Assembly (NCBI GenBank): GCA_963733035.1
Contig: CAVTBU010000006.1
Location: 544,001 to 608,000, forward strand
Source of the DNA: Pirellulales bacterium
GTDB taxonomy: Bacteria; Planctomycetota; Planctomycetia; Pirellulales; PALSA-1355
Direction: 5' to 3'
Length of the DNA: 64,000 nucleotides
The position numbers were made by a program, and so were the translations under genes. The notes below the pieces were generated by a model that was not told where the DNA came from, did no database searches, and saw nothing but the letters and a program-made list of their open reading frames with translations. Every line of letters starts with the position of its first letter. Within the stretch, counting starts at the first letter, position 1. Positions 257 through 48,703 of the stretch are shown in pieces.

Positions 257-3200
257 ATGCGACGCTATCTTTTCTTGCTGCTCGTGTGTGGCGCGTGTCT
301 GATTGTTTCGGACAGGACGCCGGCTAGCGACTTGCCGCCGGTAGACTACGACCGTCAGGTCCGGCATATTCTCTCAAACCATTGCTATGCCTGTCACGGA
401 CCGGATCAGGCACAATTGCAAGCCGGCCTGCGGTTGGACAAGCGTGAGCGTGCGCAGGCGGAGCTTGAGACCGGCGGACATGCCGTCATACCGGGCAATA
501 GCGCGGCCAGTAAGCTCATTGCGAGAATTACTAGCGACGATCTGGATGAGGTAATGCCGCCGGCCGATGCTGGCAAGCCGCTCTCGCCAGAGCAGATCGA
601 GATCCTTCGTCGCTGGATCGATGAGGGAGCCGAGTGGGAAGAACATTGGTCGTATCGCCCGATTAGCCGCGCGGTGCCGCCAGAGGTGTCAAACACGGCG
701 TGGCCGCGCACGCCGATCGACAATTTTGTGCTGCGTCGACTGGAAGCGGAAGGGCTCGTTCCGGAGCCCGTGGCGGATCGCTCGACGTTAGTTCGCCGCC
801 TAAGTCTTGATTTGACCGGCCTGCCGCCAAGCATCGAGGAAGTAGATGCATTCGTCGCGGACAACGATCCGGACGCCTACGAGCGGCTGGTCGATCGTCT
901 GCTCTCCTCACCGCGATACGGCGAGCGGATGGCGCAAAAGTGGCTCGATCTGGCCCGCTACGCAGACACCAACGGTTACCACATCGACAACCATCGCGAC
1001 ATCTGGCTGTATCGCGATTGGGTGATTGAGGCATTCAATCGCAATTTGCCCTTTGATCAGTTCACGATTGAACAGTTGGCCGGCGACTTACTACCAAACC
1101 CAACCACGCAGCAGCGGATCGCAACGGGTTTCCATCGCAACACGATGGTGAACTTCGAAGGAGGGGCCGATCCGGCCGAGTATCTGTCGAAGTACATCGT
1201 CGACCGCGTCACGACCACTGCCACGGTATTTCTCGGCACGACGCTGGCCTGCACCGAGTGCCACGACCATAAGTACGATCCGTTCACACAGCGCGAGTTT
1301 TATCAGCTTTATGCCTACTTCAACAACGTGCCGGAGAAGGGACTCGACGGCAATAAGTCGAACCCCGTACCGAGCATTCGCGTCCCGCTGGAGTCGCAGA
1401 CCGAGCGACTGGGGGAATTGGACGCCAAGCGAGCCGAGGTCGAGCGGCGTGTCAGCGCCGAGTTGGCTAAGTATCGTGATATCGAGGTGCCGCAGAAACC
1501 CGTCGCTCCAGCTGCCGAGGCCCACGAGTTCGTGTGGGTCGACGACGATCTTCCCGCCGGAGGCACTCCTTCCGGCAAGGGCAAAGACGGATGGCAGTTC
1601 GTGGAGTCGCCGCATCCGGTGCTGAACGGAAGTCGCGCCAGCCATCGCCAGGCCGACGGCTTAAGTCAACATTTCTTCACGGGTGCCGCCGAGCCGTTGT
1701 TGATCGGCGAGGGAGACAAGCTGATCGCGCATGTCTGGATCGACCCAGCGAATCTGCCACAGGAGATCATGCTACAGTTCAACGACGGTGGCGGCTGGGA
1801 ACACCGCGCGTACTGGGGCAATAACACCATCGATTGGGGAAAGGCCGATTCATCCAGCCGGCGGTCAATGGGCGTCCTTCCCACGGCCGGACGCTGGATA
1901 CGGTTGGAAGTGGATGCCGCCAAGGTCGGCTTGCCGGCCGGCAGCACGATTGATGGCTGGGCCTGCACGCAGTTCGGTGGAAATGTCTATTGGGACAAAC
2001 TGGGAATTCTTACGTGTATGCCTCAGGGCGCGAGCGTCAACGAAACCCAGGGTACATGGGAACTCGCTGAGCGTGGGCGAGCCAAATCGGCAGCGCCGGC
2101 CGCCGTGCAAACGGCATTAAAAGTAGCCGTCAAGGATCGCGACGACGAACAGCGCAACGCGGTCCGCGACTACTTCGTCCGGCATTTCTATAGCAAGGCA
2201 CGTGAGACGTTTGCACCTCTTGAGCGAGAGTTGGCCGAAATCGCCAAACAGCAGGCCGAAGTTCGCGACCAGTTTCCCGCCACGATGGTGATGGACGAGA
2301 TGTCCGAACCGCGCGAGACGTTCGTGCTGGTGCGGGGCGATTTCCGCACCTTTGGCGACAAAGTCGAACCAAGCGTGCCGACGGCGCTCTCGCCTCTTCC
2401 AACAGGCGCGCCGGCCAACCGGCTTGGCCTGGCACAGTGGTTGGTGGATCCCAATCATCCGCTCGTGGCGCGAGTCACCGTGAATCGCTACTGGCAACAG
2501 TACTTCGGCGGCGGGCTGGTGAAAACCAGTGAGGACTTCGGCTCGCAGGGGGAACTCCCCAGCCACCCCGAATTGCTCGATTGGCTTGCGGCCCGCTTCA
2601 TTGACAGCGGCTGGAATATCAAGCAGCTACAGAAAGTGATTGTGATGTCGGCGACGTACCGACAGTCTTCACGAATTTCACAGGAAAAACTTTCCCGCGA
2701 CCCGAACAACCTCTTGCTTGCTCGCGGCCCACGTTTTCGGATCGACGCGGAGATGATTCGTGACAGCGCATTGGCCGTCAGCGGGTTGCTTGACGATCGC
2801 ATTGGTGGCCCGAGCGTGGCGCCCTATCAGCCACCGGGGCTATGGGAACAGGTCGGTTTCGGCGGTGACTTTACGTCTCAGAGCTACACTCAGAGCCATG
2901 GTCGTGATTTGTATCGCCGCGGTATTTATGTCTATCTGAAGCGGGCTATGCCGTATCCGCCGCTGGTGACCTTCGATGCACCAAATCGCGAAGTTTGCAC
3001 CGACCAGCGCGCTCGGACGAACACGCCGCTGCAGGCGCTTGTGCTGCTCAACGATCCCGGCTTCGTGGAAGCGGCACGTGCCCTGGCACAACGCGTGATC
3101 ATCTCCGGTGGAAGTTCACCGACGGAGCGGCTCGACTTTGCATTTAAGCTTTGCACGGCTCGGAAGCCCGAGATTGCCGAAGCACAAGTACTGTTGGCGA

Positions 3201-3370
3201 TCTACGAAGCACAGCTAGCGCGCTTCAAGCAGGACCCGGAAGCGGCCAAGAAACTGACGCATGTTGGCGAGTCTGCCGTGCCCGCGGGGCTTGATCCGGC
3301 CGAATTGGCGGCCTGGACGGCCGTGGGCAATGTGCTGTTGAATCTCGATGAGACAATTACCAAGGGTTAG
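257..3370 (+). CDS. Planctomycete cytochrome c / DUF1549 / DUF1553 (PSCyt1-PSCyt2-PSD1) protein
   Basis: Signal peptide; CYACHG and CTECHDH heme motifs; WLDLARYADTNG, HPELLDWLA and RTNTPLQAL family motifs; adjacent DUF1501 gene. Confidence 0.92.
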   Translation: MRRYLFLLLVCGACLIVSDRTPASDLPPVDYDRQVRHILSNHCYACHGPDQAQLQAGLRLDKRERAQAELETGGHAVIPGNSAASKLIARITSDDLDEVMPPADAGKPLSPEQIEILRRWIDEGAEWEEHWSYRPISRAVPPEVSNTAWPRTPIDNFVLRRLEAEGLVPEPVADRSTLVRRLSLDLTGLPPSIEEVDAFVADNDPDAYERLVDRLLSSPRYGERMAQKWLDLARYADTNGYHIDNHRDIWLYRDWVIEAFNRNLPFDQFTIEQLAGDLLPNPTTQQRIATGFHRNTMVNFEGGADPAEYLSKYIVDRVTTTATVFLGTTLACTECHDHKYDPFTQREFYQLYAYFNNVPEKGLDGNKSNPVPSIRVPLESQTERLGELDAKRAEVERRVSAELAKYRDIEVPQKPVAPAAEAHEFVWVDDDLPAGGTPSGKGKDGWQFVESPHPVLNGSRASHRQADGLSQHFFTGAAEPLLIGEGDKLIAHVWIDPANLPQEIMLQFNDGGGWEHRAYWGNNTIDWGKADSSSRRSMGVLPTAGRWIRLEVDAAKVGLPAGSTIDGWACTQFGGNVYWDKLGILTCMPQGASVNETQGTWELAERGRAKSAAPAAVQTALKVAVKDRDDEQRNAVRDYFVRHFYSKARETFAPLERELAEIAKQQAEVRDQFPATMVMDEMSEPRETFVLVRGDFRTFGDKVEPSVPTALSPLPTGAPANRLGLAQWLVDPNHPLVARVTVNRYWQQYFGGGLVKTSEDFGSQGELPSHPELLDWLAARFIDSGWNIKQLQKVIVMSATYRQSSRISQEKLSRDPNNLLLARGPRFRIDAEMIRDSALAVSGLLDDRIGGPSVAPYQPPGLWEQVGFGGDFTSQSYTQSHGRDLYRRGIYVYLKRAMPYPPLVTFDAPNREVCTDQRARTNTPLQALVLLNDPGFVEAARALAQRVIISGGSSPTERLDFAFKLCTARKPEIAEAQVLLAIYEAQLARFKQDPEAAKKLTHVGESAVPAGLDPAELAAWTAVGNVLLNLDETITKG

Positions 3371-3373
3371 CCG

Positions 3374-4820
3374 ATGAACTCGCTAGACGACCTCAGTCGC
3401 GAAATCACACGTCGGACATTGCTCGGCAATTCGGCGCGAGGTTTCGGTGCGCTGGCCCTGGCTTCGCTGCTCAACGGCGGCCTGCGTGCGGACACGTCGG
3501 ATCCGAGCCTTACCTCGTACGGCGCGCTCGGCACACTGCACTTTGCACCTAAAGCCAAGCGAGTCATTTATTTGTTCATGTCCGGCGGACCATCGCACAT
3601 CGACCTGTTCGACGCCAAGCCCAAACTCAAAGAGCTGACCGGCGAGGAACTGCCCGACTCGGTACGAATGGGTCAGCGGATTACCGGCATGACCAGCGGC
3701 CAGGCAAAGCTGCTGATGGTAGGGCCGGCCTATCCCTTCAAGAAGTATGGTCAGTGCGGCACTGAGATCACGGAAGCCATGCCGCACATCGGCAGCATCG
3801 CCGATGACATCTGCCTCGTTCGATCGTTGCATACAGATCCGATTAACCACGATCCGGCGGTCACCTACCTGCTCACCGGAAATCAACAGCCCGGCCGGCC
3901 GACGATCGGTTCCTGGGCTGCTTATGGCTTGGGGAGTGTAAACAAAAACCTGCCCGAATACGTCGTGCTACTTTCCGGCGGCGGGGGGCAGCCACTACTG
4001 GCGCTATTGGGGAAATGGCTTCTTGCCGAGCCAATATCAGGGCGTGCAATTTCGTTCGACCGGTGATCCCGTGCTGTACGTTTCCAATCCGGAGGGAATC
4101 GATCCCGCGACCCGGCGCCAGTTGCTCGACGGCGTGGAAAAACTCAACCGCATGCAACTCGAGGCGGTCGGCGATCCAGAAATTGCCACGCGAATCGACG
4201 CCTATGAAATGGCGTACCGCATGCAGACCAGCGTGCCCGAACTGATGGACATTTCCCAAGAGCCGCAGCAAGTCCTCGACATGTACGGCGCCGAGCCCGG
4301 CAAAGCGTCGTTTGCCAACAACTGCTTGCTGGCCCGACGACTCGCGGAGCGCGACGTGCGGTTCGTTCAGCTCTATCATCGTGACTGGGACCATCACGGC
4401 AGCCTGCCGAGTGAACTGAAGCGTCAATGCGGCCTGTGCGATCAGGCATCGGCCGCATTGGTGAAGGACCTCAAGCAGCGCGGCTTGTTGGACGAAACGC
4501 TAGTGATTTGGGGGGGTGAGTTCGGCCGCACGGCCTACAGCCAGGGAGCGATTAGCGAAAAGAGCTTTGGCCGCGATCATCATCCGCGTTGCTTCAGCAT
4601 TTGGATGGCCGGTGGGGGCATCAAGCCGGGGACGACGTTCGGCAAGACCGACGACTTTGGCTACAACGTCATCGAAAACGGCGTCCACGCCCACGACCTT
4701 CAAGCTACGGTCCTGCATCTGCTGGGCGTCGACCATAGGCGACTGACCTACCGGTACCAAGGCCGCGACTTCCGATTGACCGACGTTGCCGGAAAGGTAG
4801 TGCAGCCGATCCTGGCGTAG
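3374..4820 (+). CDS. DUF1501 family protein, split by an apparent frameshift near 4002
   Basis: Tat-like [46 protein letters not shown]. ORFs 3374..4066 and 4023..4820 join if one GC is added at GCGC 4001-4004 ([19 protein letters not shown]). Confidence 0.85.
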
Positions 4821-4906
4821 CACGATACGCGGCATACCTGTTTTCTCGTGCCTGTGGGATATTCTTCTCGTCCCAAATCCCGGCAAAGCCCCGGGACGGA
4901 ATGGGT

Positions 4907-4915
4907 TGTTATACT
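4907..4915 (+). promoter_or_regulatory. Putative extended -10 promoter (TGnTATACT) of the ECF sigma gene, likely near-leaderless
   Basis: TGTTATACT ends 8 nt before ATG 4924; no Shine-Dalgarno. Confidence 0.45.
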
Positions 4916-4923
4916 GCTCGTAT

Positions 4924-5559
4924 ATGTGGCCCGACTCTTCTGAAACACAGGTCTTACTCAGCGCTGCGCGCGACGGCGACGCAGACGCGCGCAATCAATT
5001 GCTTGAGCGTCATCGCGAGGCGCTACGGCGGATGGTGGGGTTGCGCATGGATCGGGCGCTGTTGCGGCGGGTCGATGCCAGCGACATCGTGCAGGACGTG
5101 CTTGTTGAGGCAAATCGACGGCTAGCCGAATACCTCGAGTCGGCCGGAATGCCGTTTCAGCTGTGGTTGCGGCATCTGGCCCGTGATCGCATGATCAACG
5201 CGCATCGGCGGCACCATGCGGCCCGGCGGAGCGTCGACCGCGAGCAACCGTTGGAAGCGGCGCCGCATAACGATCAATCGGCATTTGATCTGGCGGCGCT
5301 CGTGCGCGATCGCGAGTTGACGCCGGCGGCTGCGGCTACGCATCACGAACTGGAGCGGCGGTTTCAAGCGGCCATCGAAACGCTCGATGACGCCGATCGC
5401 GAGGTGGTGCTGATGCGGCACTTCGAGCAGCTCTCCAACAAGGACGTTGCGCAGACCTTGGAAATCAGTGAATCGGCCGCCGGCATGCGCTATCTACGGG
5501 CGATGCGGCGCTTGCGGGCCATGTTGCAAGAGCCTCCTTCGCAAGCGAGCGAGTCGTGA
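4924..5559 (+). CDS. ECF (sigma-70 family) RNA polymerase sigma factor, planctomycete kinase-associated type
   Basis: Region 2 RRVDASDIVQD...FQLWLR; region 4 DREVVLMRHFEQLSNKDVAQTLEIS; overlaps the kinase start (GTGA). Confidence 0.9.
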   Translation: MWPDSSETQVLLSAARDGDADARNQLLERHREALRRMVGLRMDRALLRRVDASDIVQDVLVEANRRLAEYLESAGMPFQLWLRHLARDRMINAHRRHHAARRSVDREQPLEAAPHNDQSAFDLAALVRDRELTPAAAATHHELERRFQAAIETLDDADREVVLMRHFEQLSNKDVAQTLEISESAAGMRYLRAMRRLRAMLQEPPSQASES

Positions 5560-7262
5560 ACCCTGATCCAGTCCAGCACGCCGACGAACAGTTGTTGGCC
5601 GAACTGGCAGCTCGGCTGGCCGATGAGATGCAGCGGGGCCAGTTGCCCAATGTGGATGCAGTAATATCGGAGCATCCGCAATTGGCCGAGGAGCTGCGGG
5701 GACTATGGGCCACGATGCTCGTGGCGGATTGCGTCGCCGCTGGTGCAAACAGTTCGTCGCAGCGCGGGAGCAAGAATGGCTCCGGTGCGCCAACTCACGG
5801 GCATCCATTGCCATTCTACGACGCGACGTCGTCACCGAGCACTGGCGACGCATTGGGTGACTATGAGCTGATCGACGAGCTCGGACGTGGCGGCATGGGC
5901 GTGGTCTACCGGGCGCGCCAAAGGAGCCTGGGACGTACCGTGGCATTGAAAATGATCTTGCGCGGGGCGATGCCGTCGCCGGCCGACTTGGCACGCTTTC
6001 GTACTGAAGCGGAAAGCGCCGCGCGGCTGGACCATCCGGCAATCGTGCCGATCTACGAAATCGGTCAGCACGACGGTCAGCCGTTCTTCACGATGAAATA
6101 CGTGGCCGGCACGACACTCGCCAAGCGGCTGGCCGAAGGACCGATGCATCCACGTGAAGCAGCCGAACTGCTCGCGCCCATTTGTCGCGCGATTCATTTT
6201 GCTCACGAACGTGGCGTGCTGCATCGCGACCTCAAGCCTTCGAACATTTTGATCGACGAAGAAGGTCGGCCGCATGTGTCGGACTTCGGACTGGCCAAGC
6301 GCGTGGAAACCGATGCCGAGCTCACTCTCTCGGGCGCCGTGCTGGGAACGCCGTCGTACATGGCCCCGGAGCAGGCGGCCGGCAAACGCGGCAAAATCGG
6401 TCGCGAGAGCGACGTCTACAGCCTGGGCACGATCCTCTACCAGATGCTTACCGGCCGTCCGCCGTTTCAAGCCGCCACGCCAGTCGAAACCGTGATGATG
6501 GTCGTCGAACAGGAACCGTTGCCGCCACGGTTGCTCAATCCGCGGGCCGATCGCGAACTGGAGATGATCGCGCTGAAGTGTTTGCAAAAGCCGCCCGAGT
6601 TGCGCTACGGCACGGCCGCGGAATTGGCCGACGATCTCGACGCCTATCTGGCCGACGAACCAACAGTCGCCCGCAGTGGACAATTCATGCAAGTTGTGGC
6701 CCGAGCGTTCCGCGAAACGCATCATGCCACGGTGCTGGAGAACTGGGGGCTGCTGTGGATGTGGCACAGCCTGGCGCTGTTTATCACGGCATTCCTAACG
6801 AACGTCTTGCAGTGGGTCGGCGCGACCTCACCGCTACCGTACCTGGCTCTGTGGACCGTCGGACTGGGGACTTGGGCGGCCATCTTTTGGAGCCTGCGAC
6901 GTCGTAGCGGGCCGGTGACATTTGTTGAACGACAGATCGCGCACCTGTGGGCTGCGAGCATGGTGTCGATTGCATTGTTATTTGTCGTGGAATTGATTCT
7001 CGGCTTGCCGGTGCTGACGCTCTCGCCTGTGTTGGCGTTGACCAGTGGAATGATTTTTCTGGTCAAAGCCGGTATGCTCACCGGGCAGTTCTATTTGCAA
7101 GCGGTGGCGTTGTTTGCCACGGCGATCGTCATGGCCGCACTGCAGCGAGCGAACATCCCGATTGCCATTACACTCTTCGGCGTCGTCTCCGCGGGATGTT
7201 TCTTCTTTCCAGGCCTGAAGTACTACCGGCAACAGCGGGCCGCCGAGAGCACGGACTCCTAA
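5556..7262 (+). CDS. Hanks-type Ser/Thr protein kinase with C-terminal multi-pass membrane domain
   Basis: LGRGGMGVVY, VALK, HRDLKPSNIL, DFGLAK, GTPSYMAPEQ; about 5-6 hydrophobic helices at the C-terminus. Confidence 0.93.
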   Translation: MNPDPVQHADEQLLAELAARLADEMQRGQLPNVDAVISEHPQLAEELRGLWATMLVADCVAAGANSSSQRGSKNGSGAPTHGHPLPFYDATSSPSTGDALGDYELIDELGRGGMGVVYRARQRSLGRTVALKMILRGAMPSPADLARFRTEAESAARLDHPAIVPIYEIGQHDGQPFFTMKYVAGTTLAKRLAEGPMHPREAAELLAPICRAIHFAHERGVLHRDLKPSNILIDEEGRPHVSDFGLAKRVETDAELTLSGAVLGTPSYMAPEQAAGKRGKIGRESDVYSLGTILYQMLTGRPPFQAATPVETVMMVVEQEPLPPRLLNPRADRELEMIALKCLQKPPELRYGTAAELADDLDAYLADEPTVARSGQFMQVVARAFRETHHATVLENWGLLWMWHSLALFITAFLTNVLQWVGATSPLPYLALWTVGLGTWAAIFWSLRRRSGPVTFVERQIAHLWAASMVSIALLFVVELILGLPVLTLSPVLALTSGMIFLVKAGMLTGQFYLQAVALFATAIVMAALQRANIPIAITLFGVVSAGCFFFPGLKYYRQQRAAESTDS

Positions 7263-8815: not shown

Positions 8816-10081
8816 TCAGAGGTCTTCGGAGATTCGTAGCAGCCGGTTGTATTTAGCTAGCCGCTCGCCGCGAACGATCGAGCCAATCTTGATTAGTTCG
8901 GCTGCAGTGGCCACGGCCAGATCGGCGATTGTGGTGTCTTCCGTTTCACCGCTACGCGCCGATACGATGTAGCTGTAGCCCGCCTGCCGGGCGACATGGA
9001 TGGCCTCGAGCGTTTCAGAGAGCGTGCCGATCTGATTCAGCTTGATCAAAATGCCATTGGCCGCACCTTTTTGGATTCCCACCTTGAGTCGCTCAATATT
9101 CGTGGCGAACAGGTCGTCGCCAACCAGCCGGGCTCGCTTGCCCAGTTGCTGCGTGAGCCGCTGCCAGCCGGCCCAATCATCCTCGGCGAGCGGATCTTCG
9201 ATGCTTTTGACGGGATACTGCTCGACGAGCCGAGCCATCACGGCGATCATCTCGTCGCTGGTGAGCTTTTCTTCGCCGGTGGCGATCATACGGTAGCAGC
9301 GGCCGTCGTAGAAGTGCGTGCTGGCCACATCCAGGGCAATCGTGACGTCGCGACCGGGGCGTAGGCCGGCGGCTTCAATGGCCCGAATCAAGAACTCGAC
9401 TGCCTCGACATTGCTTTTCAGCCGCGGACCATAGCCTCCTTCATCCCCCACCAAACGTCCCTCGTAGCCGGAGACAGACAACAGTGTGCCGAGACGACGG
9501 TAAACGCGGACGATCCATTCGAGAGACTCAGCCAGGCTCTCCGAACCGACTGGTTTGATCAAAAAGTCCTGGAAGTCAAGATTGTCTCCGGCGTGCAAGC
9601 CGCCGGAAATCATGTTGACCATGGGCACGGGCATCCGCGGTGGCGGGGCAGCCGAGTCGAACTGCTTGAACAAATCGTGCAAGTGGCGGTAGAGCGGCAT
9701 CCGCCGGGCGGCCGCCGCGGCATGGGCAGTTGCCAACGAGACCGCCAGTATCGCATTGCCGCCCAGGCTGCGCTTGTCGCTCGATCCATCGAGGTCGATA
9801 AGCCGCGAGTCAACGCCGCGCTGATCGAGAGTCTCGTAGCCACTCACCGCGGGAGCAATCTTTTCGACGACGTTAACCACCGCTTGGCGCACTCCACGAC
9901 CATCGTAGCGCGACGCGGCGGTGTCACGTAGTTCGAAGGCTTCGGCCGAGCCAGTACTTGCTCCGGAGGGAGCAATGGCTCGGCCCCACGCACCACTCGA
10001 GGTATGAATTTCCGCTTCAACCGTCGGGTTGCCCCGGCTGTCAAGTACTTCGCGTGCCAGGACATTGGTAATCGTCGACAA
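8816..10081 (-). CDS. eno: Enolase-family protein, divergent active site
   Basis: DSRGNPTVE, PSGASTG, GDEGG, SIEDP, LVGDD, IKLNQIGT and ERLAKYN present; SARSGETED and FQDF replace SHRSGETED and xQEF; TTG start with GGAG SD. Confidence 0.88.
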   Translation of the reverse strand: MSTITNVLAREVLDSRGNPTVEAEIHTSSGAWGRAIAPSGASTGSAEAFELRDTAASRYDGRGVRQAVVNVVEKIAPAVSGYETLDQRGVDSRLIDLDGSSDKRSLGGNAILAVSLATAHAAAAARRMPLYRHLHDLFKQFDSAAPPPRMPVPMVNMISGGLHAGDNLDFQDFLIKPVGSESLAESLEWIVRVYRRLGTLLSVSGYEGRLVGDEGGYGPRLKSNVEAVEFLIRAIEAAGLRPGRDVTIALDVASTHFYDGRCYRMIATGEEKLTSDEMIAVMARLVEQYPVKSIEDPLAEDDWAGWQRLTQQLGKRARLVGDDLFATNIERLKVGIQKGAANGILIKLNQIGTLSETLEAIHVARQAGYSYIVSARSGETEDTTIADLAVATAAELIKIGSIVRGERLAKYNRLLRISEDL

Positions 10082-10141
10082 CTGAAATCACTCCGCTGGT
10101 CTTAGGGGTGGCGAAGTACAAAGGTCACTTTGTGCGGTGCT

Positions 10142-11209
10142 CTAGGGGTAGTCTTGGCCGAAGCCGACTTGCGCCATCCGCAAAAGCTCATTCAAGTCGC
10201 ACGGCCGTTGTTCAAACACCTCGCGACATAGTCGCCGGATGCGCTGCTGCTTTCCAAGATCAGTTAGATACTCCACCGGGCTCTTGCCGTCCAGGCGTGC
10301 CCAGGCGCAACCGGCTAAGTTTTGCACGCCACGGGTCCACAAGTTGGAAAGCTCATCCGCTGGTATTTTGGCGGCAAGAATTGTGTCGTATTGCGCGCGA
10401 AAAGTTTCTGCAAGTGCAAAGTACCGCGCGTGGTCCGGCGTCTTTTGACAGGCCTTGAGCAACAGGTGGCTGAGAAAAAACCCCAAGTCAAACGCCGGAT
10501 CGCCATAGTGTCCCGTTTCGAAGTCGACGAGGAATAGCCCAGCCGAAGAAATCAGCAGATTCTTCGGACTGAAATCCGCATGAACCAGCGAACGAGGCGA
10601 TTCTTCGAGTGATACAAGCAGGTGTTTGACCCCCTCCTTCGCGTCCGCCCGGTTAGCTGCCAGCGTGCGATAGTACGGATCGATTCGTAACTGTTCAAAA
10701 AGTGTCCGATCTCCGAAACGCAAGGCCATTTCGGTGTCTTGCCAACTGGCGGCGTGCAGACTTCCCAGCAAGGCGCCCGCAGCCGCAGCCACTTGGAGAT
10801 CGACGGTTCCGGCCAGAAGCTCTGCCTTCCAGACAATGTTTGGTCGAGGTGCGGCCGTCATCGCCAGTATGTACTCATCACGATCTTCGAAGAGTATTTG
10901 CGGCGTGCCGAAGGGAAGCGATGCGTCTGTGGTCACGGGCGCACGCGACAAGATTTCACTGCACGTGCGCAACACGTCGGCCTCGCGCCAGACGCGTTCG
11001 ATGTCGGAATACCATCGACTTTGCGTGCGCAGTTGAGCCCGGGCTTGTTTGAGCACGAAATCGCTGCCGAAAGTTTCGGATCTTTCGATCAACAGCACCA
11101 TGTTCGAAACGCCGCCGGTCAGTTCGCGGACAGTAACTTTCTCGCGGGGATCAATTCGTCCGGACCGGCGCAGGTAGTTTTCGGCGGACTCTTGATCGAT
11201 CAGTTGCAT
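10142..11209 (-). CDS. APH / methylthioribose-kinase-like phosphotransferase
   Basis: LTGGVSN glycine loop, FVLKQA, HADFSPKN catalytic loop, DFE, GDPAFD; start placed at MQLID (upstream ATG 11278 possible). Confidence 0.8.
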   Translation of the reverse strand: MQLIDQESAENYLRRSGRIDPREKVTVRELTGGVSNMVLLIERSETFGSDFVLKQARAQLRTQSRWYSDIERVWREADVLRTCSEILSRAPVTTDASLPFGTPQILFEDRDEYILAMTAAPRPNIVWKAELLAGTVDLQVAAAAGALLGSLHAASWQDTEMALRFGDRTLFEQLRIDPYYRTLAANRADAKEGVKHLLVSLEESPRSLVHADFSPKNLLISSAGLFLVDFETGHYGDPAFDLGFFLSHLLLKACQKTPDHARYFALAETFRAQYDTILAAKIPADELSNLWTRGVQNLAGCAWARLDGKSPVEYLTDLGKQQRIRRLCREVFEQRPCDLNELLRMAQVGFGQDYP

Positions 11210-11336
11210 TTGGCCAATATCTCCCTTGCCGCCGCGGTCGGTCAAGCGAGGCGCCGGCAGCTGGTCATGCGACTTCATTGACCGACGCCCGATGCTAACC
11301 TAAAACGCTAGTGACGCTGTCCAACGAACAAGTCCA

Positions 11337-13184: not shown

Positions 13185-13562
13185 TCAACTCGCCAATAGG
13201 CCGTACAGTAGTCCGGCCAAAACCAGACTCGAGATGACGACGTACGTCAAGTCGCGGCGATAAGCGAAGGCCAGCAGTGCGCCGATCACACGGGCGATCG
13301 GCGTGGCGACCAGCAAGAGCAGGCCGAGTTGGATCCAACCCTGCGGGTCGCGGTGGGCGGCATCCGCGACGATACCTCGAACGCTTTTCAGGTCGTCCGG
13401 CTCGCCGCGGAACAAGCCGTAGTGCGGGAGCTCACCGCCGTGCTGCGTCAGGAATGCGATTCCACCCAGACCGATGACCAGGGCGGCAATGATGGTGCCC
13501 CAGCGCAGCACCGCCCCTAGGGCAACTTCCGTGGTTTCCTCCACGTTTGCATCTGTGTTCAT
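13185..13562 (-). CDS. DUF1634 membrane protein
   Basis: Three TM helices; IQLGLLLLVATPIARV motif; directly downstream of a TSUP transporter (a usual pairing). Confidence 0.85.
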   Translation of the reverse strand: MNTDANVEETTEVALGAVLRWGTIIAALVIGLGGIAFLTQHGGELPHYGLFRGEPDDLKSVRGIVADAAHRDPQGWIQLGLLLLVATPIARVIGALLAFAYRRDLTYVVISSLVLAGLLYGLLAS

Positions 13563-13563
13563 G

Positions 13564-14416
13564 CTAGAAGTTGCCCCGCAGGCCGTTGATGATCATCTGT
13601 GCCGCAAGTGCCGAGACCAACACTGCAAATACCGCGCAGCACGCCGACCCGTCCGCGTGCAAGTAGCTTAGCGCCAATCGTGGCGCCACACAGCACCCCC
13701 AGGACGATTGGCATCGAAAGGCCCGGGTCGAGATAGCCGCGGTGCAAGTAAACACTGGCACTCGCAGCGGCGGTGACTCCAATCATGAAATTGCTGGTCG
13801 TCGTGGAAACCTTGAACGGAACCCGCATGGCCCGGTCCATCGCCAGCACTTTGACGGCACCGGATCCGATGCCAAGTAGTCCCGATAGTACGCCAGCCAC
13901 GTACATCAGGCCAAAGCCCAGGGGAACTGCGTGCACGCCGTACGCTTGCAAACCGGTCGGAGTGGGGTAAGTGGAGTTGAGCCTGAGCCGCGTCGAAAGG
14001 CGAGTGACCTGTGCGTCGGGCTTGACCGGTGGCACGCCTTTGAGCGATAAGTATGCCGAGAAAAGTAGCACGATGCCGAAGATGACGGCGATCAGATCCG
14101 CGCTAGCACCAATGGCCAGGGCCGCGCCCGTGAGCGCGCCGGCCGTGGTAGCGATTTCCAGCAATAGTCCGAGGCGGATGTTGGTATAGCCCTCACGCAC
14201 GTACGCAGCCGCTGCTCCGGAGGAAGTTGCGATGACCGCCAGCAGCGAAGTGCCGATTGCGTAGCGAATATCAACGCCGAACAGGAGCGTCAGCATGGGC
14301 ACGATAACCACGCCGCCGCCCAGTCCTGTAAGTGAGCCGAGAAGTCCGGCGAGGAACGCACCGGCGCCGACCAACAAGGAGAATTGCCAAATCGTCAGCC
14401 CAACGTCATCCAGCAT
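13564..14416 (-). CDS. TauE/SafE (TSUP) family transporter, apparent frameshift near 13635
   Basis: GSLTGLGGGVVIVP, SGLLGIGSG, KVSTTTSNFMIGVT; the last helix (AVFAVLVSALAAQMIINGLRGNF) lies in another frame and is restored by +GC. Confidence 0.85.
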
Positions 14417-14442
14417 CGGTTTCCGACCCTTGCTGCGCAACA

Positions 14443-14478
14443 AAAGAGAAGGTCGCGCGCAAGCGCGACCTTCTCTTT
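14443..14478 (-). terminator. Intrinsic terminator downstream of the RRM gene
   Basis: Perfect 16-bp inverted repeat AAAGAGAAGGTCGCGC-GCAA-GCGCGACCTTCTCTTT; U-rich 3' side on both strands. Confidence 0.85.
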
Positions 14479-41386: not shown

Positions 41387-43894
41387 TTCATTGGCGGTAC
41401 GCCCTCCGTGAGTTACAGCGGCGACCTGGTCGCTGGATTGTCAGCCTGCTCAGCGTCGTGATTGCCGTTGCCGCCATAGTGGCGGTAAGCTCCGCTACCA
41501 TCACCACGCGGATGGCCTATCAGCAGGTCTTCGAAGCCTTGTCGGGTCGCGCGGATTTAGAGGTCGTCGCCCACGGTGGCGGACACTTTAGCGAGAGCAT
41601 CGCCGCGAAGATTGAATCCGTGCCCGGTACCCGCTCCGTCGTGCCGGTCTTCCACCGCGGCACAATTATCTATGCTCATGGCGGCAACAAGGCCAAGGCG
41701 CTGACTGTCGGCTTTGTGCCCGATAACCCCGAAACGTTGACCGGGTTGGAGGTGCTGCAGGGCAAATTGCCGAGTCGTCCCAACGAGATCGCCGTTCAAT
41801 CGAGCCTTTCAACGGCACTTAATGTCTCAGTGGGGAGCAACGTTCGACTATTGACTTCCGCCGGCCTCCGCAATTTTACGATAACGGGAATCGTTGAGCC
41901 GGAAACGGCCGCGCGTTTGCGACAGGGTGGAATGGTGCTTGCTCGGTTGGATGCTTTGCAGCGGCTTTTCCGCGCGCGGCCAAGTAGACGCTTTACAGAT
42001 TCTCTTGTCGGCGACGTCCGATGTGAACAAGGCAATTTCCGCATACTCCCGAGTCTTGCCCGCCGAACTAAAGGTGCAAATTCCTTCGGCCCGCAGCGGG
42101 TTGGCCGAGGAAACTTTGTTGCTAACGCAGGTCAGCTTGAACATGGCCAGCGCGCTGTCGTTTACCACGGCCGTCTTCATTGTGCTCAGTGTGTTTCTGA
42201 TGAGCGTTGGTGAACGGAGACGGCAGCTCGCCATCCTGCATGCCATCGGTGCGACGCGCCGACAGATTGTGGGAATGATATCGACTGAAGCACTGCTGCT
42301 TGGAATCGGCGGTACGGTTCTGGGGATCCCGCTGGGCGTTTACGGCGGAAGTTTTCTTATCAGGTCGATGGGGACTTTGTTGCAAACCGATTTACCCGCG
42401 GCGCCCGACCTGAGATGGGCGATCGGGGTGGGTGCCGTCGTGGGTCCGGTGATTTGTCTGTTGGCCGCTTGGTATCCCGCACGAAAGGCATCGAAAGTAT
42501 CACCGGTCGAAGGGATGCGACCGGCAGTGGATTTAAACCAAAAAACGAGCCGACGCTGGACCTCGATTGTGGGATTTGCCGGATTGTTGATCTCCTTGCT
42601 CTTGGCAATAGCCACGGTGCGTGGCGATGTTCCGGTTTGGGCCGCCGTCGTGGGGCTGATCATTTCGCTGGTATCGTTCATTTTGCTGATTCCACTCGTG
42701 CTGACGCCTATTGTCAGGTTTCTGGGTTACCCCTTGCTCAAGCTGTTTGGCTTGGAAGGCGAGATGTCGCAGCGGATCATCCTTCGACGAGTCACGCGCA
42801 GTTCGCTGACGATCGGGGTGCTGTTCATTGCCGTTTCCGCTGCCGTTGGAACCGGCAACGCCGTGTTCAGTATCACTGACGACGTTCGCACTTGGTACGA
42901 GCGCACGATCACGGCCGATTTCCTGCTGCGACCTATGATGCCGGAGATGTCAGGCGAACGGGCAGCAAGCATGAGTGAGTCGCTGCGGAGCAAGATTTCA
43001 GGTCTCAAGGGCGTGGAAATGGTCGATGCGATCAGCCTGGCCCGCGTCGATGCGAACGGGCAGGACGCAATGCTTGTCGCGCGGGACTTCAGCCTGTACG
43101 ATCAGGTTCCGCTGGATCTTATCAGCGGCGATCCCGAATCGGTCGATCGGGAGCTACGAAGCGGTGCCGTGGTAGTTGGTTCCGTGCTGGCTGAGAAAGC
43201 CGGTGTGCAACCTGGCGATTCCATGAAGGTGACCTTCGGTACCGAGAGTCACGAATTCCCGGTGGCCGCAATTGCGACCGAATACACTTTTGGCGGTGCG
43301 ATCCTGTCGCTCGACCGCAAGGTTGCCCAGCGCATATTACATGTGGATGGAGTCGACACGTACCTGATAAAGGCCCAGGCCGGAAGCGTTCGCCAGCTAG
43401 CGCCAAAGCTGGAAGCCATGGCGGAAAAGAACGGTCTGCTGTTGCAATCGTTCGTCGAGTTGTGGGGGCTGATCGATTCAATGGTGACCGGCGTCACCGG
43501 CGGGCTGTGGGTGCTATTGGCCCTCGGTCTCCTGGTGGGTGGATTGGGCGTCGTGAACACGCTGACCATGAACGTACTGGAACAAACCCGAGAACTCGGC
43601 ATGTTGCGGGCGATCGGCATGCGTCGTCGACAAATCGTGAAGACCGTGCTTGGTCAGGCGGCATATTTGGGTATCATTGGTGTCGTTGCCGGCGCAATTT
43701 CCGGCTTGTCGCTGGCGCACTCGATCAACCTGACTTTGGGTTCGATGTTTGGTCGCTACGTTCCCTTCGCCATGCGTGGATACTTTCTGTTGGTGCTCGT
43801 GTTGGCGGGACTGACGGTTGTAATGCTCTCTGCGATTTTGCCTGCCAGGCGAGCCGCCCGGTTGAGCCCGATTCAGGCCATGCGGCAGGAGTAG
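41383..43894 (+). CDS. ABC permease with duplicated MacB/FtsX domains, apparent frameshift near 41975
   Basis: ORFs 41383..42213 and 41894..43894 join with +CG in a (CG)4 run; ERRRQLAILHAIGATRRQI and EQTRELGMLRAIG FtsX motifs. Confidence 0.88.
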
Positions 43895-43941
43895 GACTCA
43901 AGGGGTTTTCGGCTTTTGCGCCTTGATAACCGGAGGATAGC

Positions 43942-44559
43942 ATGATCGCCAGACTCCAGTTTCTGGCTTTGACGCTGGTGTTCTCCGCGCTGGCGTCCGC
44001 CGCGGAGCCTCTCCAGCTATTTCAAGACGACGAACAGGCCGTTACGTTCAAGCTCCAGAATGGCGAGGGCAAGATCCCCCAGCTGCTGTTGTTTAGCGCG
44101 TCAAACCAGGCCGAGACGGCCGACAGTATCAACTACTGGCGCGGCACGCCCAACCTGAACGAGAATGGCGTCGTGGTAGAATTTAAGGCCATTCGATTTC
44201 TTCGCTGCGAGGGCTCGCCCGATGAGTTGGTTGTCCGCCTGGTGGGGATCAAGAACGAGTTGGAACTCGGCGAGAGAATCTCTGTGCAGGAATTGCAAAG
44301 CGGGACGCGTCAGAAGTTTCATTTCGGTCCCGTGGTGATGGGTGCCCCCGGCTTGATCACCGGAACCACCGATGCCGTGATGCTCTTGAGCTATGATCCG
44401 TCGAATCGCACGCTCAAGATCCCTGAAGTCTCCGGCAAGTTCCAGTGGAAGCGGCTGTTCTACGATCCTCAGGAGGATTCCGGAGAGCTCACCAACGTCA
44501 CCGGCGAAGTGGGCGAAGTAGCGCCCGGAGACACCGTCCTCAGGCCGCCGCAAGATTGA
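43942..44559 (+). CDS. Secreted hypothetical protein
   Basis: GGAGGA SD; Sec signal peptide (…SALASA-AE); beta-rich mature part. Confidence 0.75.
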   Translation: MIARLQFLALTLVFSALASAAEPLQLFQDDEQAVTFKLQNGEGKIPQLLLFSASNQAETADSINYWRGTPNLNENGVVVEFKAIRFLRCEGSPDELVVRLVGIKNELELGERISVQELQSGTRQKFHFGPVVMGAPGLITGTTDAVMLLSYDPSNRTLKIPEVSGKFQWKRLFYDPQEDSGELTNVTGEVGEVAPGDTVLRPPQD

Positions 44560-44842
44560 TGCGTTCCTAGATGCGCTGGTCGATTGCGACGTCGCCGAAC
44601 GGTAGAACCTTCGCGCCGTTGGATCTGGAATTTTGCTGCTGACGACGGTTTGACAAAGGCGTACAACGTTGCGCTTTCAGCCGAGCTGACCAGCGGCTTG
44701 GGACCATCGACCTTTCCGAATGGATGTCGCTCATGCCCTCCGCGCCGATTCAATCCGTTTCGAATCGACGTGACGCACGATCACGGCTCTCGAGATCCAA
44801 GCTCTTGAATCCTGGCGTTTTTGTCGGTCTCCGCTGCGATTT

Positions 44843-44858
44843 TGGCATCGCAAATGCA
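44843..44858 (+). promoter_or_regulatory. Putative sigma54 (-24/-12) promoter of the hyf-like operon
   Basis: TGGCATCGCAAATGCA: GG at 44844-45 and GC at 44856-57, canonical spacing; about 185 nt before hyfB. Confidence 0.4.
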
Positions 44859-45042
44859 ATTCGAAAGTGGTCGCGTTTACGGTTCCTTTTTCTCGCGGTT
44901 TGACGGTAATCCACATCGGGTGATGTTTTACGTCAGTCCATAGCACGGACTCGTCACATGACATTTGAGTTGATTTTTGCTTGCTCAAGCGCCATGATAT
45001 CGCGGTCACTAGTCTTCTTGCGCGATGCCAGATGGTGCGAAT

Positions 45043-47027
45043 ATGGACGGGTTCGCTTCGCAATTGCTAATCGGCGTCGCCGTTACGGCAGCAAGCGGCA
45101 TTCCTGGATTTTTCTCGGGTCGTCGTTCTCTTGTCGGCCAGTGGGTAACGACGGCGTTGGCCGTCGGAGGCAGCGGTTTTGGCTTGTGGGGTACTTGCGC
45201 GCGATCCAGGCGCCGCCGACTACGATTATGCAGTTTCCGTCGCCGATTGCAGGCGCGGATTTCGCGCTGGCAACCGACGCCATCTCTTCGTTTTTCCTGG
45301 TACCGATCTTTCTGATAACGTTGCTGGGTTCGGTCTATGGACTGAGCTACTGGAAACAAGATGAGCATCCGGACAACGGCCGACGGTTGCGGGCGTTCTA
45401 CGGATTGCTGAGCGCCAGTTTGGCGGTACTGGTGCTGGCGCACAACTCGGTGACCTTCTTGTTCGGCTGGGAAGGGATGGCAATATCCGCGTTCCTCCTC
45501 GTTGCCACGGAGGACCGTGATCCCGAGGCTCGATCCGCCGGCTGGCTATACCTCGCCGCAAGCCACTTTGCGACGCTGTGCCTGTTCGCGATGTTTGCGC
45601 TGCTGTACGGATTGACCGGTAGTTTTGACCTCGTGCCGCTGACGGCCGAATCCCTCAGTCCCGCCGCAGTGAATCTCGTATTTCTGCTCGCGCTCGCGGG
45701 TTTTGGTTTAAAGGCTGGCGTGATGCCGCTGCACTTCTGGTTGCCAAATGCGCATGCGATGGCACCCAGTCATGTATCAGCCATCATGTCAGGCGTGATG
45801 ATCAAGGCTGGGATCTACGGCATGGTGCGGATGACCTCGATCCTGCCGCCGGTTCCGCTGTGGTGCGGCGTGCTGCTCATGTCGCTGGGTGTTGTTTCGG
45901 CCGTTTTGGGTGTTGCCTTTGCACTGGGACAACATGATTTAAAGCGGCTGCTGGCATACCACAGTATTGAAAACATTGGCATTATTGTCATCGGCCTGGC
46001 ACTTGCGGTTCTTGGCCGAACCTTGGGACAGGAGACTTGGATCGTACTCGGTCTGTCTGGAAGTCTGTTGCATGTCTGGAATCATTCGCTGTTCAAGTCA
46101 CTCCTGTTCTTTTGCGCCGGGTCAGTGATTCACACTTGTCACACGCGAGAAATCGATTTGTTGGGTGGCCTGGCGCGCACGATGCCGTGGACCGCGGGAT
46201 GTTTTTTACTCGGGGCAGTGGCGATTTGCGGATTGCCCCCCCTGAACGGATTCGTCAGCGAGTTTTTGATTTATATTGGTCTGTTTCGCACGCTGGGGAT
46301 CGGAGCCGAACAAGGACTACCGGCAACCGCGTTCGCCGTGCCCGCATTGGCGATGATGGGCGCATTGGCGGTGGCCTGCTTTGTCAAAGTGTTCGGGGTC
46401 GTATTCCTGGGCGTAAATCGGTCGCCCGAGCCGCGAGACACGCACGAAGCACCTTGGCCAATGATCGTGCCGCCATGCTTGTTGGCTATTTGCTGCGTGA
46501 TGATCGGATTGGCGCCAACGCTGCTGGTGTCGCCGCTGGATCGAGCGGTCGCAGCCTGGACTATCCAACCGCTGGCTGCAGGGTCTACGTTGATCAACCT
46601 GGCGCCGCTTGCAAAACTCAGTCTGGCGTCAGTTGTTTTGTTGGTCATGCTGATCATTGGCACCGCTTTATTGTCACGGCGGCTACGCGCCTTCCCGTTC
46701 GCGCGGGCTGAAACTTGGGGGTGCGGTTACACTGCGCCGACGCCGAGGATGCAATACACGGCCTCGTCGTTCGCGCAGATGCTGGTTTCGCTGTTCAGTT
46801 GGGCATTGCGGCCAACCGTTCATCGACCGCATTTGGAATCGCTTTTCCCCGCTGACGCAACCTACGAGAGTCACGTACCGGAGGTTGTGTTGGAACGAGT
46901 CGTCTCGCCGTTTTTTGATTTCTTCGCTCGCGTCTTTCAGTGGTGTCGTCTGGTACAGCAGGGAAACGTCCAGATTTATCTCCTTTACATATTGAGCGCG
47001 TTGGTTCTGTTATTGTTATTGCTCTAG
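45043..47027 (+). CDS. hyfB: HyfB-like antiporter-type membrane subunit (NuoL/MrpA family), apparent frameshift near 45200
   Basis: FLFGWEGM, GFGLKAGVMPLHFWLPNAH, DLKRLLAYHSIENIG, LPPLNGFVSE, TWGCGY, RMQYT; N-terminal helices in ORF 45025..45315. Confidence 0.85.
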
Positions 47028-47123
47028 CGATTTTTTGCGAATACAGCGGTGAGCCGATAGCGCCGTCCACACTGGGCTCGTTGAGTCGGTCTCGATTCGT
47101 CGCATAGCACTCTGCACATCATC

Positions 47124-48035
47124 ATGATCAACTTTTTTCTTCACCTGCTCTTGATAGTTGTGTTGCCGCCGTTCTTACTGGGTATCATCAATCGCACGAA
47201 GGCCTTTTTCGGTGGACGTCAGGGACCACCGCTACTCCAACCGTATTTCGACCTCTGGCGTCTGTTCCGCAAGGGAACGGTAGTGAGCGCGACGACAACC
47301 TGGTTATTCTCTTTTGGCGCAGTCGTCGGAATCGTGACAGTCGTTCTGGCCGCAATGCTCGTACCGTTGGGTACCGCGGGCGCTCCGTTCTCGTTCGATG
47401 GCGATTTCTTACTCTTTGCTTATTTGCTCGCGCTCGGCCGTTTCATGCTGGTCTTATCGGCGCTCGATACGGGGTCGTCGTTTGAAGGGATGGGGGCGGC
47501 GCGGGACGTGAGCTTTGCGTGTTTTGCGGAGCCAACGATGTTCCTGTGTTTACTCGCTCAGGCTCAAGCAGCCGGATCGCTACGGATGGTCGACCTGTTT
47601 GCTGGTCCCCTGGCAGCCAAAGCCAGCGTGGGAGCGCCATTGTTTTTAGTGGCGACCGCCTGGTTCCTGTTGATGCTTGCGGAGAATTGCCGCATTCCGT
47701 TTGACGATCCCAATACGCACCTCGAATTGACGATGCTTCACGAAGTGATCGTGCTGGATCACAGCGGCATTTTGTTGGCCCTTGTTCAACTGGCTGCCTC
47801 GCTTAAGCTGTTCTTGTATGCATCGCTTGTCGTGCGACTAGTCGTGCCAATCGTTTCAGGTCATGCGTTGCTCAATTTGTTTGTGTTTGTCGCGTGCGTA
47901 ATTGTCGTGGCCGGAGTGGTGGGTATCGTGGAATCGGTCATGGCTCGGTTGCGTTTGAAGCTCGTGCCCCATGTGCTGGCGGCAGCAGGCGTTGTGGCGG
48001 CGTTTGGACTCGTTTTGTTGCTGACGATACCATGA
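47124..48035 (+). CDS. hyfC: HyfC/NuoH-like membrane subunit
   Basis: GRQGPPLLQPYFDL, DTGSSFEGMG, ENCRIPFDDP, ESVMARLRL. Confidence 0.88.
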   Translation: MINFFLHLLLIVVLPPFLLGIINRTKAFFGGRQGPPLLQPYFDLWRLFRKGTVVSATTTWLFSFGAVVGIVTVVLAAMLVPLGTAGAPFSFDGDFLLFAYLLALGRFMLVLSALDTGSSFEGMGAARDVSFACFAEPTMFLCLLAQAQAAGSLRMVDLFAGPLAAKASVGAPLFLVATAWFLLMLAENCRIPFDDPNTHLELTMLHEVIVLDHSGILLALVQLAASLKLFLYASLVVRLVVPIVSGHALLNLFVFVACVIVVAGVVGIVESVMARLRLKLVPHVLAAAGVVAAFGLVLLLTIP

Positions 48036-48700
48036 ATCTCACAGTAACTGATTCCTTCCTCGTGGTTGTGGTGTTGATCAACTTCTTTCTGTTAGCCACG
48101 GGAAGTTTGCGCACGATCATCTATGCCGCCGCCCTGCAAGGCGCGATCCTCGGTATCGTCTACCCCCTGGCTCACCAGGGACTGCACGAGAGCGGCGCAG
48201 CCGTCGTCAGCATGCGGCTATTGGCACTGGCGGCGGCCATGATTGCCATTAAAGGAATCGTCATGCCCAGGATGCTTAATTTCGCCATGCGCGAGGCGCA
48301 CGTTTCCTGGCAGATCGATCCCTATCTGGGGCTCACTGCTTCACTGCTGCTGGGCGCAGTGGGGACTGGACTGATTATGGCCCTGTCATCCAGACTGCCG
48401 CTCCGACAAGAACATCTAAGCCATTTACTGGTGCCGGCATCGTTGGCAACCGTGTTGGCTGGGTTCTTAATCCTGACAACCCGTCGCGAGGCTCTAACGC
48501 AGGTGGTGGGCTACCTCGTTCTCGAGAATGGCATCTTCATCTTTGGGCTGCTATTGGTCGAGGCGATGCCGTTAATTGTTGAAGTGGGCGTCTTGCTGGA
48601 CCTGTTCGTAGGTGTGTTTGTAATGGGGATTATCATCTACCATGTCAACCGGCAGTTTTCGGCCGCGACGACTGATCACCTCTCTGCATTGAAGGATTGA
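48032..48700 (+). CDS. hyfE: HyfE-like membrane subunit
   Basis: QVVGYLVLENGI, EVGVLLDLF; ATGA-coupled to hyfC. Confidence 0.85.
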   Translation: MNLTVTDSFLVVVVLINFFLLATGSLRTIIYAAALQGAILGIVYPLAHQGLHESGAAVVSMRLLALAAAMIAIKGIVMPRMLNFAMREAHVSWQIDPYLGLTASLLLGAVGTGLIMALSSRLPLRQEHLSHLLVPASLATVLAGFLILTTRREALTQVVGYLVLENGIFIFGLLLVEAMPLIVEVGVLLDLFVGVFVMGIIIYHVNRQFSAATTDHLSALKD

Positions 48701-48703
48701 TCT

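Follow-up and report, generated by a model that had tools for sequence, protein, structure and literature searches.

An active-site-variant enolase clade coupled to an MtnK-fold kinase: a candidate phosphorylation and dehydration cassette in a Pirellulales bacterium

We analysed a 64,000-nucleotide stretch of DNA (the window) from a Pirellulales bacterium of the phylum Planctomycetota (assembly GCA_963733035.1, contig CAVTBU010000006.1, positions 544,001 to 608,000), in which two genes on the minus strand place an unusual enolase directly behind a small-molecule kinase. The downstream gene (8816..10081) encodes an enolase-subgroup paralogue of 421 amino acids (aa), whose open reading frame (ORF) translation carries both the Enolase_N and Enolase_C domains. 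The upstream gene (10142..11209) encodes a kinase of the APH/ELK superfamily with the fold of methylthioribose kinase (MtnK). The longest ORF of the kinase spans 10142-11278, and translation probably begins at M24, position 11209, judging from where its homologues begin. By sequence scan, a spacer of 60 nucleotides (nt; 10082..10141) separates the kinase stop from the enolase start, which is a TTG codon with a GGAG 9 nt ahead of it, inside the spacer. A promoter and terminator scan found no terminator-like site in the 60-nt spacer, and its matches around the kinase-enolase operon were no better than chance. The nearest genomic relative (L001) has an arrangement identical to that of the window, and there is no second enolase within the 64-kb window. 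The PSCyt, PSD1 and DUF1501 genes of the window, like the names of homologues, agree with a planctomycete origin.

The enolase scores 175.6 bits on PF03952 (Enolase_N), 322 bits on PF00113 (Enolase_C) and 549.2 bits on the NCBIfam equivalog TIGR01060, for which the cut-off is 300; annotation pipelines would therefore call the protein a plain enolase. Its catalytic apparatus is intact. The metal ligands lie in ALDVAS (D251), SIED (E295) and GDD (D322), the catalytic Lys in ILIKLNQ (K347), the general-acid Glu in GDEGG (E214) and the loop His in GGLHAG (H163). The second Lys (K398) and the Arg and Ser residues of the phosphate site (R376, S377, S42) are also kept. All the metal ligands, the catalytic Lys, the acid Glu and the loop His are conserved both in the group of variants described below and in canonical enolases. 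Three motifs depart from the canonical form, with ISGG for INGG, FQDF for FQEF and SARS for SHRS, and each departure is visible column by column in an alignment to the solved cyanobacterial enolase 4rop from Synechococcus (448 bits). On the minus strand these residues are encoded by TCC (S159, for the Asn of INGG; 9605..9607), GAC (D172, for Glu) and GCG (A375, for His; 8957..8959). A fourth departure, L174 for the canonical Met, is encoded by TTG, and the codons from D172 to L174 occupy 9560..9568. A first-pass annotation, made from the letters and translations only, had reported the co-oriented MtnK/APH-like kinase 60 nt upstream, the retained Mg ligands, Lys, acid Glu and GLHA His, and the Ser, Asp and Ala replacements; the spacer, every named motif in the translation, the three codons and the 4rop alignment all agree with it.

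By their offset from the catalytic residues, we take positions 172, 375 and 159 to be E168, H373 and N155 of yeast enolase, with the roles assigned to those residues there. Altering E168 or H373 cripples the yeast enzyme. The canonical Glu and His at 172 and 375 occur in all 105 canonical representatives compared and in none of the 30 variants. As the catalytic apparatus is retained, the chemistry should still begin with abstraction of the alpha proton of a 2-phospho carboxylate and end with departure of a C3 group, assisted by the acid. All four substitutions lie at the pocket that would hold C3 and the leaving group, and the intermediate therefore most likely differs from 2-phosphoglycerate (2-PG) at C3. 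Look-ups of both proteins in a protein atlas returned generic APH and enolase clusters only.

The substitutions are a family trait. Among the 120 nearest homologues listed (64-100% identity), all have xSGG, and SARS and QD are found wherever the motif is readable. We aligned 146 representatives of 50%-identity clusters with six near homologues and the query. At the diagnostic positions, 99 rows read N-H-E-E-K-H-K and about 30 read S/G-H-D-E-K-A-K. A column contrast between 30 variant and 105 canonical rows gave systematic differences at four positions only, namely 159 (N to S/G), 172 (E to D), 174 (M to L) and 375 (H to A), while 59 columns were conserved at 90% or more in both groups, including D251, E295, D322, K347, E214, K398, H163, S42 and R376. 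In three members of the variant clade (P0301, P0282 and P0353) the acid Glu is lost as well.

In a FastTree phylogeny a single clade (support 91) holds 30 of the 31 variant rows, and the clade that encloses it has support of 98. IQ-TREE, given 69 rows stripped of the four trait columns, placed 33 of 34 variant rows in one group (SH-aLRT 99). This group takes in plasmid-borne copies from a haloarchaeon, Azospirillum, Rhizobium, Rhodococcus and Paracoccus, together with the enolase parts of fusions found in Vibrio, Polaribacter and a Gaiellaceae metagenome-assembled genome. The variant enolases are a distinct, conserved and monophyletic clade that spans Bacteria and Archaea. The window enolase belongs to it by its S/G-D-L-A signature, its place in the tree and its adjacent MtnK-fold kinase. 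A protein of 888 aa, P0242, was considered and set aside, being a tandem of canonical enolase-like copies that is irrelevant to the variant clade. Several other proteins of 780-980 aa (among P0393-P0401 and P0409) likewise hold two canonical enolase motif sets in tandem; nine such rows read NN/EE/HH, some are named from eukaryotes, and they are unrelated to the kinase-linked clade. A further protein, P0408 (1944 aa, labelled 'eukprot'), unites PSD1, PSCyt2, protein-kinase and variant-enolase domains, gene families that are all found in the neighbourhood of the window genes; it probably entered its eukaryotic data set as a planctomycete contaminant whose gene models had been merged.

The clade is bound to the kinase by both adjacency and fusion. 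A kinase-profile scan of one genome per GTDB species gave at least 573 relatives, of which the best 80 loci, from Planctomycetota, Acidobacteriota and Actinomycetota, were analysed. An enolase lies immediately downstream on the same strand in 50 of the 80, with gaps of 12-1080 nt; six loci end within 1.4 kb, leaving 74 testable. Forty-nine of the 50 adjacent enolases carry at least one variant marker, none is canonical and one is too short to read. The phyla are mirrored in the kinase tree, with repeated losses of adjacency, chiefly in Planctomycetota. Moreover, for 40 of 119 close enolase homologues the longest contig is identical in size to that of a listed kinase homologue, six of these shared-size contigs being 6 kb or less.

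Fusions were surveyed among the 120 best enolase matches longer than 737 aa. An APH domain is present in 44 of them, all 44 enolases are variant, and the kinase comes first in 41. Of the other 76 long forms, 72 are canonical at every readable position; the fusion partners of long canonical enolases are instead PGK, pyruvate kinase, iPGM or TIM domains. In two of the kinase fusions, the kinase portion shares 34-35% identity with the window kinase over about 310 residues (E-values 2e-53 and 4e-52). In another two variant enolases the partner is a D-2-hydroxyacid dehydrogenase domain; these domain matches are partial, and the proteins may be merged gene calls. The variant clade is thus tightly and specifically coupled to this kinase family.

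In some relatives the variant is found together with a canonical enolase. In Azospirillum brasilense Sp7, plasmid p1 carries the kinase and a variant enolase (FGGG/QDL/SARS), while plasmid p3 carries a canonical enolase (INGG/QEF/SHRS) between pflB and pta/ackA. Chromid pMTS1 of Cupriavidus sp. P-10 holds a variant and a canonical enolase about 34 kb apart. Since both types are present, the variant is an accessory paralogue in these two organisms. The variant-kinase pair is also found on plasmids of Rhizobium, Sinorhizobium, Rhodococcus, Burkholderia, Methylobacterium nodulans, Paracoccus, Embleya and two haloarchaea.

The kinase scores 63 bits on PF01636 (APH; gathering threshold 23.2), and its Pfam matches are to APH and Choline_kinase only, with no homology among them to Gly_kinase or MOFRL, the families of the known glycerate kinase classes I-III. 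Those three classes have folds unrelated to that of the window kinase. On the MtnK equivalog TIGR01767 it reaches 44.7 bits, far under the cut-off of 275, and a sequence search of the PDB gave marginal matches only. An AlphaFold model built from a 33-sequence alignment (mean pLDDT, the predicted local distance difference test, 90.1) best matched 2pyw, 9a5i and 2pun, with TM-scores of 0.74-0.79 at 15-17% identity. The top structural matches are methylthioribose kinases, followed by PsiK and the lanthipeptide (peptide) kinase LxmK. In the same alignment the catalytic loop HxDxSPKN (HADFSPKN in the window kinase, H233-x-D235-x4-N240) and the metal motif D252-F-E254 are invariant or nearly so, and two motifs rich in Arg, Lys and Tyr, LR(V/I)DPYYR and ARxDGKSPxEYL, are specific to the family. 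Many kinase homologues are named '5-methylthioribose kinase' at JGI; elsewhere the public label is 'phosphotransferase', and the variant enolases are labelled 'phosphopyruvate hydratase' or 'enolase'.

In annotated relatives the gene neighbourhoods of the pair are populated by enzymes of acid metabolism. A D-2-hydroxyacid dehydrogenase occurs in 5 annotated contexts and a FAH-family protein in 6. Haladaptatus and Halomarina plasmids have the order kinase, enolase, cupin, with the kinase and enolase overlapping by 4 nt; the haloarchaeal pair sits among a GarL-like aldolase, L-talarate/galactarate- and galactonate-dehydratase-like enzymes, SDRs and a KARI-like reductase, and the Halomarina plasmid also has a D-2-hydroxyacid dehydrogenase. 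In Paracoccus seriniphilus a LacI regulator gene borders the series kinase, enolase, FAH hydrolase, SDR, SDR, sugar ABC transporter and XylB-like SDR, in which the FAH protein resembles 2,4-didehydro-3-deoxy-L-rhamnonate hydrolase (352 bits, under the cut-off of 500). Rhodococcus pseudokoreensis and R. opacus have a FAH gene, a dehydrogenase, the enolase and kinase, and then a FAH or acyl-CoA dehydrogenase-like gene. Two Rhizobium plasmids have a LysR gene next to an operon of ppc, a dehydrogenase and the kinase, with the variant enolase, a cupin, an extradiol-dioxygenase-like VOC protein and an ABC transporter 4 kb from that operon. Cupriavidus shows the same gene set, with ppc nearby. No gene annotated as glycerate kinase was found in the annotated haloarchaeal, Rhizobium, Rhodococcus and Paracoccus regions examined, and methionine-salvage genes are absent from the surroundings of the pair in the window, in 20 GTDB loci and in the plasmid loci. 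The neighbours of acidobacterial and actinobacterial pairs are heterogeneous, and the next-best gene cluster, of convergent genes just downstream of the enolase, is found in 10 of the 80 loci only, all close relatives. The statement of the first-pass annotation that the enolase stands in a non-glycolytic context, and the clade of SARS/QD enolases co-occurring with this kinase for which it proposed to look, are borne out by these neighbourhoods, by both trees (one of them stripped of the trait columns) and by the 50 adjacent loci and 44 fusions; the lack of linkage that would have spoken against it was not seen.

Some further neighbours were noted. In the window, a gene pair for a TauE/SafE anion exporter and a DUF1634 protein (13185-14443, minus strand) lies about 2 kb from the kinase. 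A link to sulfite by way of the TauE/SafE gene (13559-14443) was considered and rejected, as none of 94 related loci has a TauE homologue; the proximity is treated as a coincidence. In six loci (L019, L028, L040, L043, L046 and L051; five Terriglobia and one Acidobacteria bacterium) a molybdopterin oxidoreductase of the sulfite-oxidase/MsrP family (PF00174) lies about 1 kb upstream of the kinase on the opposite strand. L028, L043 and L046 are near relatives in the kinase tree, and the proximity may be partly shared synteny. Paralogues of the thermosome-type chaperonin (TCP-1/cpn60) adjoin the haloarchaeal kinase-enolase operon in two loci (L081, 5222-6916; L088, 5516-7084 and 7172-8863).

Taken together, we consider it slightly more probable than otherwise that the kinase and enolase genes form one functional cassette. 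The MtnK-fold kinase would transfer a phosphate from ATP to the 2-hydroxyl of a glycerate-type 2,3-dihydroxy acid, or of an otherwise 3-substituted 2-hydroxy acid; with an ATP-dependent kinase next door, the 2-phospho acid would be made on the spot. In the enolase paralogue, the retained Lys would then take the C2 proton and the retained Glu acid would expel the C3 group, yielding phosphoenolpyruvate (PEP) or a 3-substituted analogue for use by PEP-consuming enzymes. The presence of ppc in a shared operon suggests that the product is PEP or close to it. In many relatives a D-2-hydroxyacid dehydrogenase would make the hydroxy acid from a 2-oxo acid, and the frequency of this neighbour implies that the hydroxy acid often has such an origin. 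The whole module would then lead from oxo acid to hydroxy acid, 2-phospho acid and enol phosphate. The phosphorylated position, the order of the steps and the identity of the substrate are what we infer from fold, residues and context. We lean, by a small margin of belief, towards a phosphorylation and dehydration cassette whose substrate is a C3-modified glycerate-type acid. A C3-modified analogue is favoured over glycerate itself because all four substitutions shrink side chains around C3, and because the pairing is kept even in hosts that own a canonical enolase. As the acid Glu is retained, a hydroxyl-type leaving group is likelier than sulfite or phosphate, which makes sulfolactate-type ideas less probable. 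Going further, and with a little less than an even chance of being right, the clade could be the first widespread family of the enolase subgroup that does not act on 2-PG, performing with its kinase, and often a dehydrogenase, an ATP-driven 'phospho-dehydration' of a C3-modified glycerate or lactate to PEP or an analogue. Candidate substrates would be a C4 or larger 2,3-dihydroxy acid, L-glycerate, tartrate or 3-sulfolactate.

Several observations weigh against the proposal of a C3-modified substrate. Genomes of Planctomycetota, Acidobacteriota and Actinomycetota usually have the pair by itself, without a conserved third gene, and 24 of the 74 testable kinase loci have no enolase in the examined DNA. 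Most of the context evidence comes from kinase relatives that are only 30-35% identical to the window kinase. A canonical enolase beside the variant is known from relatives only, and not from the planctomycete of the window. P0255, which has the full variant signature (S-D-A), groups with the canonical P0316 in both trees and may be convergent, recombinant or a chimeric assembly. Finally, the hydroxypyruvate-reductase-like dehydrogenase, PEP carboxylase and GarL-like aldolase fit a route from plain D-glycerate through 2-PG to PEP.

That route is the strongest alternative to a C3-modified substrate, though we hold it to be rather unlikely. The kinase would then be a fourth class of D-glycerate 2-kinase, of APH/MtnK fold, and the paralogue a dedicated, working 2-PG enolase, so that hydroxypyruvate or tartronate semialdehyde would pass through D-glycerate and 2-PG to PEP, with the pocket changes tuning kinetics or inhibitor sensitivity and not the choice of substrate. 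D-glycerate is the simplest substrate, and every residue required for the elimination of hydroxide is kept. The contexts described above speak for it too: ppc, the dehydrogenase and the kinase share an operon on the two Rhizobium plasmids, with ppc also near the Cupriavidus cluster; the GarL-like aldolase, L-talarate/galactarate-dehydratase-like enzymes and KARI-like reductase flank the Haladaptatus pair; the gene after the Paracoccus enolase resembles 2,4-didehydro-3-deoxy-acid hydrolases; and the examined regions of relatives have no annotated glycerate kinase. A glycerate 2-kinase is the last enzyme of the gar/gud pathways of E. coli and the ttu pathway of Agrobacterium, and ttu has its own pyruvate kinase. 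However, all 105 canonical representatives keep the equivalents of E168 and H373, and if the route runs through plain glycerate the change of pocket needs another explanation. Moreover, hosts with a canonical enolase would have little use for another one acting on 2-PG, yet both adjacency and fusion are kept across Bacteria and Archaea. The first-pass annotation had proposed a paralogue that dehydrates a bulkier 2-phospho acid made by the adjacent kinase. Of this the distinct paralogue clade and the coupling to the kinase stand; the bulkier substrate is argued only from the pocket-shrinking substitutions, and the neighbourhoods point at least as readily to hydroxypyruvate or D-glycerate as the source of 2-PG and PEP.

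Two other explanations are much less probable. The variant might simply be the sole, glycolytic enolase of this planctomycete, with a functionally unrelated kinase as its neighbour. Its score far over the NCBIfam cut-off, the 64-kb window with no second enolase in view and the bare Planctomycetota pair, which has no further metabolic neighbours, agree with this. We nevertheless regard it as very improbable, given an adjacency found in 50 of 80 loci over three phyla, 44 fusions that are all variant, a clade separate from the canonical enolases, the presence of both types in relatives and the loss of the acid Glu in some clade members. Slightly less credible still, and the least probable of all, is that the kinase phosphorylates the enolase or another protein, or that it is a true methylthioribose kinase. 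Its fold is nearest to MtnK (TM-scores of 0.74-0.79), the peptide kinase LxmK is among the next structural matches and many homologues bear the JGI label, but 44.7 bits against an equivalog cut-off of 275, 15-17% identity to the MtnK structures, the lack of methionine-salvage genes near the pair in the window or any examined locus, and consistent partners that are acid-metabolising enzymes all argue otherwise.

The preferred cassette, acting on a C3-modified acid, can be set beside known systems. Canonical enolase (EC 4.2.1.11; TIGR01060, 4rop) has the same two domains and the same catalytic and phosphate-site residues as the variant. The variant clade differs in swapping the Asn, Glu, Met and His of the C3/water pocket for Ser/Gly, Asp, Leu and Ala, in standing apart as a clade that coexists with canonical enolase in relatives, and in being linked or fused to a kinase rather than linked to glycolytic genes. 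MtnK (TIGR01767; 2pyw, 2pun, 2olc), the best structural match to the kinase model, also has an HxDxxxxN loop and a D-x-E motif, both of which the window kinase shares; the latter is set apart by its 15-17% identity, its sub-cut-off equivalog score, its own Arg/Lys/Tyr motifs and a context free of salvage genes. Pathways that pair a glycerate 2-kinase with enolase (non-phosphorylative Entner-Doudoroff, glucarate/galactarate, tartrate and the serine cycle) follow a like logic of phosphorylation at O2 and then dehydration to PEP. Glycerate-forming pathways also have like neighbours, with a hydroxypyruvate-reductase-like dehydrogenase, a GarL-like aldolase, acid-sugar dehydratases and ppc, but we know of none with a dedicated active-site-variant enolase. 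PhpH, which acts in carboxyphosphonoenolpyruvate synthesis during phosphinothricin biosynthesis, is an enolase-subgroup paralogue on a 2-PG analogue; its variation is on the phosphoryl side, its cluster is narrow and biosynthetic, and no APH-fold kinase partner is known for it. To our knowledge, a single function is generally ascribed to the enolase subgroup within its superfamily, and annotation pipelines give all of its members the name 'phosphopyruvate hydratase'. In the full-text literature searched, with subscription-only papers outside the search, we found no description of a kinase-linked enolase clade or of one with the E to D and H to A changes. The arCOG paper treats different archaeal enolase paralogues (PMC4390880), and three glycerate kinase classes have been described (PMC2063504).

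Elsewhere in the window, two overlapping plus-strand ORFs (3374-4066 and 4023-4820) match profile positions 1-120 and 132-390 of one DUF1501 domain and look like a frameshifted or split gene; a PSCyt/PSD1 gene (257-3370) directly precedes them. An ORF for an extracytoplasmic function (ECF) sigma factor (4906-5559, plus strand) overlaps by 4 nt a Ser/Thr protein kinase ORF (5556-7262, plus strand), possibly as a sigma-kinase signalling pair. At about 42000-50000 the AT skew is -0.16 to -0.30 and G+C is lower. The plus-strand genes there encode an FtsX permease, Mrp/complex-I-like antiporter subunits and proteins like NADH dehydrogenase subunit 1 and the 49-kDa subunit, and the hydrophobic codon usage of such membrane-protein genes probably explains the skew.

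In summary, a planctomycete enolase with all of its catalytic residues and a remodelled C3 pocket belongs to a cross-domain clade coupled to an MtnK-fold kinase. It is somewhat probable that this cassette marks a widespread, unstudied two-step pathway that databases label as ordinary enolase. The pair would be new either way, as a new substrate for enolase chemistry or as a fourth glycerate kinase class with a dedicated enolase. Should the phospho-dehydration of a C3-modified acid prove true, many genomes carry, under the wrong name of enolase, a family that occurs in both Bacteria and Archaea. Metabolic reconstructions that count the variant as the glycolytic enolase risk error in Planctomycetota, Acidobacteriota, Actinomycetota, rhizobia, Azospirillum, Vibrio, Polaribacter and haloarchaea.

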